DNA of 64,000 nt from Escherichia phage EC.P1 (PQ657772.1), one strand, 5' to 3'. Counted from the first letter of the stretch, positions 46,754 through 46,908 are shown. The notes: generated from the sequence alone by a model not told the origin. Made by a program: numbers and translations.

Positions 46754-46822
46754 TAGTTTGTTTGTTAAGTTTTAACGGGCTATTAACGTTGATTTGTCTT
46801 CGTTGACTCATCAACAATTTAC

Positions 46823-46831
46823 ATTATATCA
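46823..46831 (-). promoter_or_regulatory. extended -10 box TGATATAAT (sigma70-like), proximal copy upstream of SSB gene
   Basis: Minus-strand catgatataatg. Confidence 0.4.
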
Positions 46832-46867
46832 TGGGATTTTTAACCGTCCCAAGGTTTTTTTACTCTG

Positions 46868-46895
46868 TTTGTCAAGGCTCATTGCCCTGACAAAC
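46868..46895 (-). promoter_or_regulatory. imperfect inverted repeat in SSB 5' leader (possible translational operator)
   Basis: tttgtcaagg ctcattgc cctgacaaa; no adjacent T-run. Confidence 0.35.
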
Positions 46896-46898
46896 ATC

Positions 46899-46907
46899 AT
46901 TATATCA
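46899..46907 (-). promoter_or_regulatory. extended -10 box TGATATAAT, distal copy upstream of SSB gene
   Basis: Minus-strand ggtgatataatgatg. Confidence 0.4.
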
Positions 46908-46908
46908 C

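Follow-up and report, generated by a model that had tools for sequence, protein, structure and literature searches.

How is expression of the gp32-like SSB gene controlled in Escherichia phage EC.P1 (PQ657772.1), and does the intergenic region upstream of this gene hold a counterpart of the T4 gene 32 operator? The question arises from a 64,000-nucleotide stretch of the genome, hereafter the window, in which the minus strand is the coding strand for nearly all genes. The initial annotation described the region as a single structured 155-nt leader with duplicated extended −10 boxes, and suggested that an inverted repeat between the boxes could be the equivalent operator. The phage is a Rak2-like jumbo coliphage of the genus Asteriusvirus. 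Over positions 45600..48300 it shares 99.9% identity with phages Ecwhy_1 and fEgEco12, ~87% with 121Q/PBECO4-type phages, and 60–80% with relatives infecting Klebsiella, Salmonella, Cronobacter, Serratia, Erwinia, Yersinia, Pectobacterium and Xanthomonas. The gene order is virion structural protein, intergenic region, SSB, intrinsic terminator and uvsX, and the SSB unit and its upstream neighbor are delimited by the following elements.

46909..48213, minus strand: virion structural protein gene, the 5' neighbor of SSB, with its stop codon TAG at 46911..46909
46742..46748, minus strand: Shine-Dalgarno sequence AAGGAAG of SSB; AAGGAA is near-invariant in the alignment
45686..46735, minus strand: gp32-like SSB gene, 349 amino acids from ATG 46735, annotated as SSB in related phages
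45648..45667, minus strand: intrinsic terminator, GGGGCAACGGAGUUUGCCCC then GUUUUAUUUC, which ends the SSB transcription unit

The terminator is conserved: one of near-identical sequence is annotated in G17, and it corresponds to Torf277 in the list of predicted sites for Pectobacterium phage CBB. The assignment of the gene to the gp32 family stands, as the product matches PF08804 (gp32) in Pfam with an E value of 7.4e-7 and 29.8 bits, narrowly exceeding the curated cutoff of 26.8. A phmmer search against PDB chains returned two marginal, unrelated matches, with gp32 not among them, and by these searches homology to T4 gp32 is visible at the profile level only. The protein is labeled a "structural protein" in the original 121Q GenBank record (L003, 121Q gene 6), and the SSB of fENko-Kae01 (L007, ENKO_306) is annotated as identified by LC-MS/MS. 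This would be an unexpected location for a gp32-type protein, and it may reflect contamination or genuine packaging.

The position of the start codon determines the length of the leader. The most likely start is ATG 46735 rather than the in-frame ATG 46753 given by the mechanical ORF call, because the former is preceded by AAGGAAG and aligns with the annotated starts and Shine-Dalgarno sequences of all relatives, and ATG 46753 is not conserved. A start at 46735 would give untranslated leaders of ~81 nt from the proximal promoter (P2) and ~157 nt from the distal one (P1), both described below. Thus, the single leader of 155 nt gives way to two. Other promoters of the same class in this phage lie ~25–45 nt from the AUG, and the SSB leaders are unusually long by comparison. 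Small ORFs in the intergenic region (32 aa at 46719..46817; annotated CDSs in Yen9-03 and Kaldavass) were considered and rejected as spurious, their start codons not being conserved. The small hypothetical CDSs annotated in Yen9-03 (L002, 1115..1231) and Kaldavass (L013, 1012..1228) extend over the conserved promoter and hairpin sequences; they are probably artifacts of annotation.

The two copies of the extended −10 box reported initially are present at 46907..46899 and 46831..46823, exactly 76 bp apart, and each is accompanied by further promoter-like elements.

46929..46935, minus strand: A7 tract of P1 (UP-element-like), directly 5' of the −35-like hexamer and inside the 3' end of the virion-protein gene
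46922..46927, minus strand: −35-like hexamer CGAGAC of P1, 17 bp upstream of TATAAT
46899..46907, minus strand: extended −10 box TGATATAAT of P1, 1 nt past the stop codon TAG of the upstream gene
46855..46861, minus strand: A7 tract of P2 (UP-element-like), 5' of the −35-like hexamer, in the same layout as at P1
46846..46851, minus strand: −35-like hexamer TGGGAC of P2, 17 bp upstream of TATAAT
46823..46831, minus strand: extended −10 box TGATATAAT of P2

The box occurs 11 times in the window against 1.9 copies expected from shuffles, and none of 100 shuffles reached 11. Ten of the 11 copies lie on the minus strand, all ten followed by G. At both P1 and P2, TGn stands directly 5' of TATAAT, as in sigma-70-type extended −10 elements. 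Among the listed TGnTATAAT and PWM matches in the 64-kb window, no other pair lies so close together.

To follow these elements through evolution, the homologous intergenic region was aligned from 16 isolates and 22 IMG/VR contigs. Both TGnTATAAT boxes are retained in all enterobacterial relatives examined. The pair, each box with its A-tract and a −35-like hexamer 17 bp away, is found in Asteriusvirus, Munch-like, Mimasvirus, Eneladusvirus, EJP2 and RaK2 relatives, and the same arrangement appears in IMG/VR contigs. Mean pairwise identity is 0.88 for the P1 box across 14 relatives, with flanks at ~0.3, and 0.86 for the P2 box, and the sequence between the boxes is ~0.3–0.4 identical, the hairpin regions having values of 0.30–0.38. 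The distance from box to box ranges from 75 to 130 bp among relatives. Upstream of the P2 −35, an A-rich tract (consensus AAAAAA) is present in all enterobacterial relatives. The −35-like hexamer itself varies (TGGGAC, TGAAAC or TGGAAC across the aligned relatives), that of P2 reading TGAAAC in Mimasvirus and Eneladusvirus relatives. Taken together, these patterns identify P1 and P2, as far as sequence can, as two tandem promoters with extended −10 elements. Their predicted activity and the precise 5' ends of their transcripts are deduced from promoter geometry. A literature search for TSS or RNA-seq data on Rak2-like enterobacterial phages found none, turning up the distant PA5oct only.

The SSB intergenic region of JNE01 (L005, ~1209..1462) contains three TGATATAAT modules, one more than in the window phage, the extra module being preceded by a CCTGAAC/GTTCAGG dyad. 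Thus, module number differs between close relatives. A T4-type late promoter was also sought, and the intergenic region of the window has no TATAAATA. In Mimasvirus and Eneladusvirus relatives, a T4-late-like TATAAATA or CTAAATA adjoins or overlaps the P1 −35, for example TATAAATAAATGAAAC; the loci concerned are those of GAP32, Serratia BF, Yen9-03, CBB, XbC2 and Kaldavass (L008, L009, L002, L010, L011 and L013, respectively). The SSB gene of those relatives may therefore have three promoters. Another candidate element, a dyad between the P2 −35 (TGGGA) and the end of the spacer (TCCCA) that is also scored as a weak plus-strand terminator, is no more stable than shuffles in the window (z = −0.3). 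Its pairing register varies between relatives, and it is largely explained by the −35 consensus together with a T-rich spacer; RNAalifold draws it for 121Q-type sequences, where it is unproven.

P1 and P2 resemble a promoter type that has been predicted before. The CBB paper describes a "divergent RpoD-like promoter" with TGAAACG in place of TTGACA and a classic −10, lists 18 predicted sites in its Table S6, mostly upstream of the genome block with the DNA-synthesis genes, and reports the motif in Cronobacter phage GAP32 as well (PMC5259590). Early RpoD-like promoters, T4-late-like ATAAATA promoters and a phage sigma factor are also predicted there (PMC5259590), and fEgEco12 encodes a sigma factor too. 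From the 18 CBB sites we built a PWM and scored it over 128,000 window positions, for which the 99.99th percentile is 7.4 bits. P2 (46851..46823) scores 20.6 bits and ranks 3 of 128,000; P1 (46927..46899) ranks 9 with 11.4 bits, its −35 being the weaker match. All of the top 11 window matches lie on the coding strand. The location also corresponds, as P1 and P2 are on the coding strand upstream of SSB, with UvsX next.

By sequence, then, P1 and P2 belong to the predicted divergent RpoD-like class, and the proposal that the boxes are tandem promoters gains both from this ranking and from the conservation across genera. As in CBB and GAP32, TGnTATAAT is combined with a non-canonical −35 at 17 bp and an A/T-rich spacer. 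The −35 hexamers differ, being TGGGAC and CGAGAC instead of TGAAACG, and the Asteriusvirus consensus is shifted to GrGAC(A)AAC. We propose that the two promoters represent a class of the phage's own, composed of an A-tract, nGrGAC/TGAAAC, a 17-bp spacing and TGnTATAAT, which would be read by the host RNA polymerase with sigma-70 or with a phage-encoded sigma factor. Because the class lies mainly upstream of the DNA-synthesis block, it presumably comprises middle or replication-phase promoters. The CBB list has no promoter for that phage's own SSB gene (there is no Porf_277), and the tandem pair with its hairpins therefore appears to be unreported. The promoter class is already known as a prediction; what is new for the group is the conserved tandem pair with 5' hairpins and a position-fixed leader element.

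Other candidate sites in the window have features of their own. The best match is at 6514..6486 on the minus strand, with 27.6 bits. Its −10 box takes part in a 9-bp inverted repeat with the downstream sequence (6466..6495, minus strand; GTGATATAA-N14-TTATATCAC), and its initial transcribed sequence, GTTGTTTG, resembles that of P1. Five copies of TGATATAATG are located within ORFs on the minus strand (11691..11699, 13854..13862, 19964..19972, 37205..37213 and 50088..50096), all in the frame xxT-GAT-ATA-ATG (Asp-Ile-Met), which is the sole stop-free frame. Of six D-I-M tripeptides in the window, five have ATA, a rare codon that accounts for 12% of Ile codons, and the five in-frame TGATATAATG strings compare with ~0.26 expected from codon usage. 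This excess suggests selection at the nucleotide level, that is, promoters embedded in coding sequence. The copy at 19964 has a proper cAGGAC −35 at 17 bp, and the copy at 50088 is not conserved in G17.

Downstream of each −10 box, the sense strand is predicted to fold into a stem-loop, and the second of these is followed by an unpaired, A-rich tract that leads up to the Shine-Dalgarno sequence.

46867..46895, minus strand: HP1, stem-loop GUUUGUCAGGGC-AAUGA-GCCUUGACAAAC, from the RNA fold of the sense strand
46788..46815, minus strand: HP2, two-tier hairpin GUUGAU-GA-GUC-AACGAA-GAC-AA-AUCAAC, −10 kcal/mol, z = −3.4
46749..46787, minus strand: A-rich leader, predicted unpaired; RNAalifold leaves the last 56 alignment columns unpaired
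46749..46768, minus strand: conserved leader block UUAACAAACAAACUAAUGAC, identity 0.70 against 0.30–0.39 in the neighboring intergenic region
46756..46764, minus strand: CAAACAAAC, the CAAAGAARC element, 29 nt before the AUG

HP1 corresponds to the imperfect inverted repeat seen initially between the boxes, which is found at 46868..46894 as TTTGTCAAGG-N8-CCTGACAAA on the plus strand. On the sense strand it forms a 12-bp stem from G46895 to C46867 with one G·U pair and a 5-nt loop, with a folding energy of −18.0 kcal/mol when folded alone. With its flanks, a 13th pair (U46896-A46866) is added and the energy reaches −20.4 kcal/mol (z = −6.8), a stability matched by none of 200 shuffles. HP1 begins 4 nt past the P1 −10, which places it at the predicted 5' end of P1 transcripts. 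Its start is fixed 3 nt after TATAATG in all five Asteriusvirus lineages, and the equivalent hairpins in 121Q, ph0011, A4 and JNE01 have energies of −15 to −18 kcal/mol.

The substitutions within HP1 preserve pairing. Several do so by way of G·U (A-U to G·U, G·U to A-U and C-G to U·G), and one change is compensatory (AGGGC/GCCUU versus GGAGG/CCUCC); this covariation comes from few independent lineages, of three to four types. The sequence of HP1 is not conserved beyond Asteriusvirus. In other genera, hairpins of unrelated sequence follow P1, some of them with GNRA-like loops (UUGAG-GCAA-CUCAA). Summed over 14 relatives, the folds of the P1 hairpin amount to −142 kcal/mol on the sense strand and −99 kcal/mol on the antisense strand, the sense fold being the stronger in 11 of the 14. 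Stronger folding of the sense strand points to an RNA element on the mRNA strand and not to a DNA operator. HP1 is thus, judged by its covariation and strand asymmetry, a genuine conserved RNA hairpin.

An intrinsic terminator was considered and rejected for HP1. Neither strand has a U-run after it (CAGAGUAAAAAAA on the sense strand, CAUCAUUAUAUCA on the other), in agreement with the lack of a terminator-like T-run remarked on initially, and a terminator scan did not report it, the sole match in the intergenic region being a weak plus-strand hairpin within the P2 spacer. Pairing of the HP1 5' arm (UUGUCA) with UGACAA beside the Shine-Dalgarno sequence was also rejected, as it comprises 6–7 bp only and is not conserved in 121Q or A4. 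The 3' arm of HP1 (46867..46875) reads TTGACAAAC, a perfect sigma-70 −35 hexamer that fits the extended −35 motif (A/G)GGACAAAC found at other window promoters as well; there is no −10 at 16–18 bp after it.

HP2 occupies the corresponding position at P2. It begins 8 nt past the −10, at the predicted 5' end of P2 transcripts, and its shape is conserved in Asteriusvirus, Mimasvirus and Eneladusvirus. Across 13 relatives, 91% of cells are paired, a value matched by 0–1 of 500 shuffles, and slid controls are 28–63% paired. Four of the six common pairs show double-sided changes, five such changes in all, from few independent lineages. The HP2 loop of Mimasvirus and Eneladusvirus relatives (L008–L011, L013, L024–L029) reads AGGAAG, AAGGAG or AUGGAG. 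Such a GGA-containing, Shine-Dalgarno-like loop ~50 nt upstream of the real Shine-Dalgarno sequence (AAGGAA) has the geometry of CsrA-type sites or of a ribosome standby site. The loop in the window is AACGAAG, without GGA.

Outside the promoters, no sequence of the region is better conserved than the leader block UUAACAAACAAACUAAUGAC, which equals coding sequence in this respect. Of 14 enterobacterial isolate leaders that were scanned, 11 have the CAAAGAARC element of this block at −28 to −30 relative to the AUG, and many relatives repeat the element at −50 to −56. The 15-mer consensus of the element has no other match in the window at ≤2 mismatches. The surrounding tract is 47–62% A, A/C-rich rather than A/U-rich, with ~50 nt predicted to be unpaired. 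Both its unpairedness and its A content rank 7th among 68 window genes, in the top 10% and not unique. In the window leader, UUAA occurs three times and the triplet UAA four times. Over the leaders of relatives, 49 UAA triplets were observed against 39.5 ± 4.6 expected, a weak enrichment (P ~0.02) among sequences that are non-independent. An Rfam scan of 46000..47600 with E values up to 10 gave nothing in the intergenic region.

Which function would account for this arrangement? We consider it probable, on balance, that the intergenic region is the control region of a monocistronic SSB unit, in which tandem promoters give high expression from transcripts that start at stabilizing 5' stem-loops. 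Since a stem-loop follows each −10 within 4–8 nt, HP1 would form the 5' terminus of the P1 transcript and HP2 that of the P2 transcript. A caveat applies to HP1, whose stem in the P1 transcript would be reduced to 8–9 bp by a start at the usual distance from the −10, as set out below. The likeliest role of these hairpins would be to shield the mRNA from decay that depends on its 5' end (RppH, RNase E). In addition, the doubled promoter and the long unpaired A-rich leader would provide high transcription and translation, and a high output of SSB would fit a protein that is required in stoichiometric amounts.

Stabilization by such structures has a precedent. Emory, Bouvet and Belasco reportedly found in 1992 that 5'-terminal stem-loops stabilize E. 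coli mRNAs, the case being the ompA 5' UTR. The SSB leaders would share with such stabilizers, the ompA hairpin and engineered 5' hairpins among them, a stable stem-loop at or near the predicted 5' end and the lack of a terminator tail, at both P1 and P2 and across genera. They differ in that their 5' ends are deduced from promoter geometry only, HP1 and HP2 lying 4 and 8 nt past their respective −10 boxes, where +1 would be expected. T4 itself offers a parallel, as gene 32 has several promoters and a very stable mRNA, the most stable T4 message (PMC3014915).

The alternative with the most substance is autogenous control of the T4 type, in which SSB would bind its own leader once single-stranded DNA is saturated and thereby block the RBS; we regard it as rather unlikely. 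In T4, the operator consists of a ~28-nt H-type pseudoknot ~67 nt upstream of the AUG and of an unstructured stretch of >40 nt whose UUAAA/UAAA repeats overlap the RBS and which gp32 binds cooperatively, and the message has an RNase E end at −71 (PMC535899, PMC3014915). The inverted repeat proposed initially does not hold up as the equivalent, because P2 transcripts do not contain HP1, whose distance from the Shine-Dalgarno sequence exceeds 115 nt (it ends ~118 nt upstream); its sequence is, moreover, not conserved beyond Asteriusvirus, and the repeat has no T4 counterpart. If an operator exists, HP2 with the A-rich tract beside the RBS would be by analogy the better candidate. In this version, which is the favored form of the operator and a possible one, the 28-nt HP2 would nucleate binding like the T4 pseudoknot, and the ~50-nt A-rich CAAAGAARC tract would be coated cooperatively.

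Several observations agree with such an operator. The SSB gene belongs to the gp32 family and has more than one predicted promoter, and the P2 transcript resembles the T4 message in layout, with its 5' end, a ~28-nt 5' structure, 40–50 A-rich nucleotides predicted to be unpaired and the Shine-Dalgarno sequence in succession. The A-rich block, conserved like coding sequence and unique to the SSB leader in the window, is fixed at −29 and often duplicated, and the UUAA and UAA motifs noted above are present. Distant gp32 homologues also have long leaders with repeated motifs. In these homologues (IMG/VR contigs L034, L036–L039, L042–L044 and L048), whose SSB is 40–50% identical, a single canonical TTGACA-N17-TATATT promoter is followed by a leader with three to four UUAGGCA(A/C)A repeats before the Shine-Dalgarno sequence, which may be a different, repeat-type leader element; AAACUUAG in these leaders aligns with the Rak2-like leaders.

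Other observations weigh against it. RNA structure prediction gave no pseudoknot. The MFE and consensus folds return HP2 as a nested two-tier hairpin, and by inspection, as the folding tools are pseudoknot-blind, its loop has no downstream complement. The repeats in the SSB leader are CAAAGAARC or A/C-rich in place of UUAAA, and the leader has no sequence similarity to the T4 operator and no Rfam match. UAA enrichment is weak, the lack of structure and the A content are unexceptional at rank 7 of 68, and the protein is too distant from T4 gp32 to be found by phmmer against PDB chains. An S1-dependent translational enhancer would explain a position-fixed A-rich element equally well. Even among T4-like phages the operator is not universal, as RB49 lacks it, and a review states that autocontrol in diverse T4 relatives needs study (PMC3014915). 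A P2 leader that serves as a pseudoknot-less autoregulatory operator, composed of HP2 and CAAAGAARC, for a divergent gp32-type SSB in at least five Rak2-like genera is accordingly a tentative proposal, one that we hold to be considerably less probable than mRNA stabilization and high expression. Under it, the distant environmental relatives would by analogy carry their UUAGGCA-repeat leader for the same purpose.

A less probable alternative concerns the upstream gene. HP1 could act on the late virion-gene transcripts as a 3'-end stabilizer, a processing site or a weak termination site, which we consider improbable. The hairpin is situated 14 nt after the upstream stop codon (46911..46909), with no other terminator between the two genes. 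If P1 transcription starts at the usual 7–8 nt after the −10 (G46891), the first 3–4 nt of the HP1 5' arm would be untranscribed. The P1 transcript would then begin with a 5'-terminal stem of 8–9 bp, and only RNA reading through from the upstream late gene would contain the full 12–13 bp stem. Against this role, HP1 has no U-run and is not an intrinsic terminator, and in each of the five Asteriusvirus lineages it keeps a constant distance from the P1 −10; in other genera, too, the hairpin tracks the P1 −10, with the stop codon 40–60 nt further upstream.

Finally, the inverted repeat could be a DNA operator at which a dimeric repressor of phage or host origin on TTTGTC...GACAAA over the P1 start turns P1 off, in keeping with the invariant outer half-sites (GTTTGTC/GACAAAC) around a variable center in five Asteriusvirus lineages and with the resemblance of the 3' arm TTGACAAAC to the (A/G)GGACAAAC motif of other phage promoters, but this is very improbable, as the variable center keeps a complementarity that a half-site spacer does not need, pairing through G·U works in sense RNA only (the antisense fold is 3–6 kcal/mol weaker in four of five lineages), and the hairpins found at this position in other genera are unrelated in sequence.

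The favored arrangement of promoters with 5' hairpins can also be compared with the PeSL/PmSL cassettes of T4-like phages, which are short modules of a promoter and a stem-loop; PeSL modules are found in hyperplastic regions, with a terminator as the stem-loop and an early promoter after it (PMC2839356, PMC4122927). The SSB region likewise combines a conserved promoter with a stem-loop, and its module number varies between relatives, with three in JNE01. Unlike those of PeSL, the SSB hairpins come after the −10 and have no U-tails, and the gene beside them is a core replication gene.

The region is thus a neatly arranged but ordinary expression signal; it does not amount to a new type of system. 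Its promoter and leader pieces may serve as strong expression parts. For the Rak2-like jumbo phages, the SSB intergenic region provides a compact and conserved test case of expression control. It could reveal which sigma factor reads this class of promoters, it could be used to test stabilization by 5' hairpins, and it could show whether autoregulation of the gp32 type extends beyond the T-even phages.
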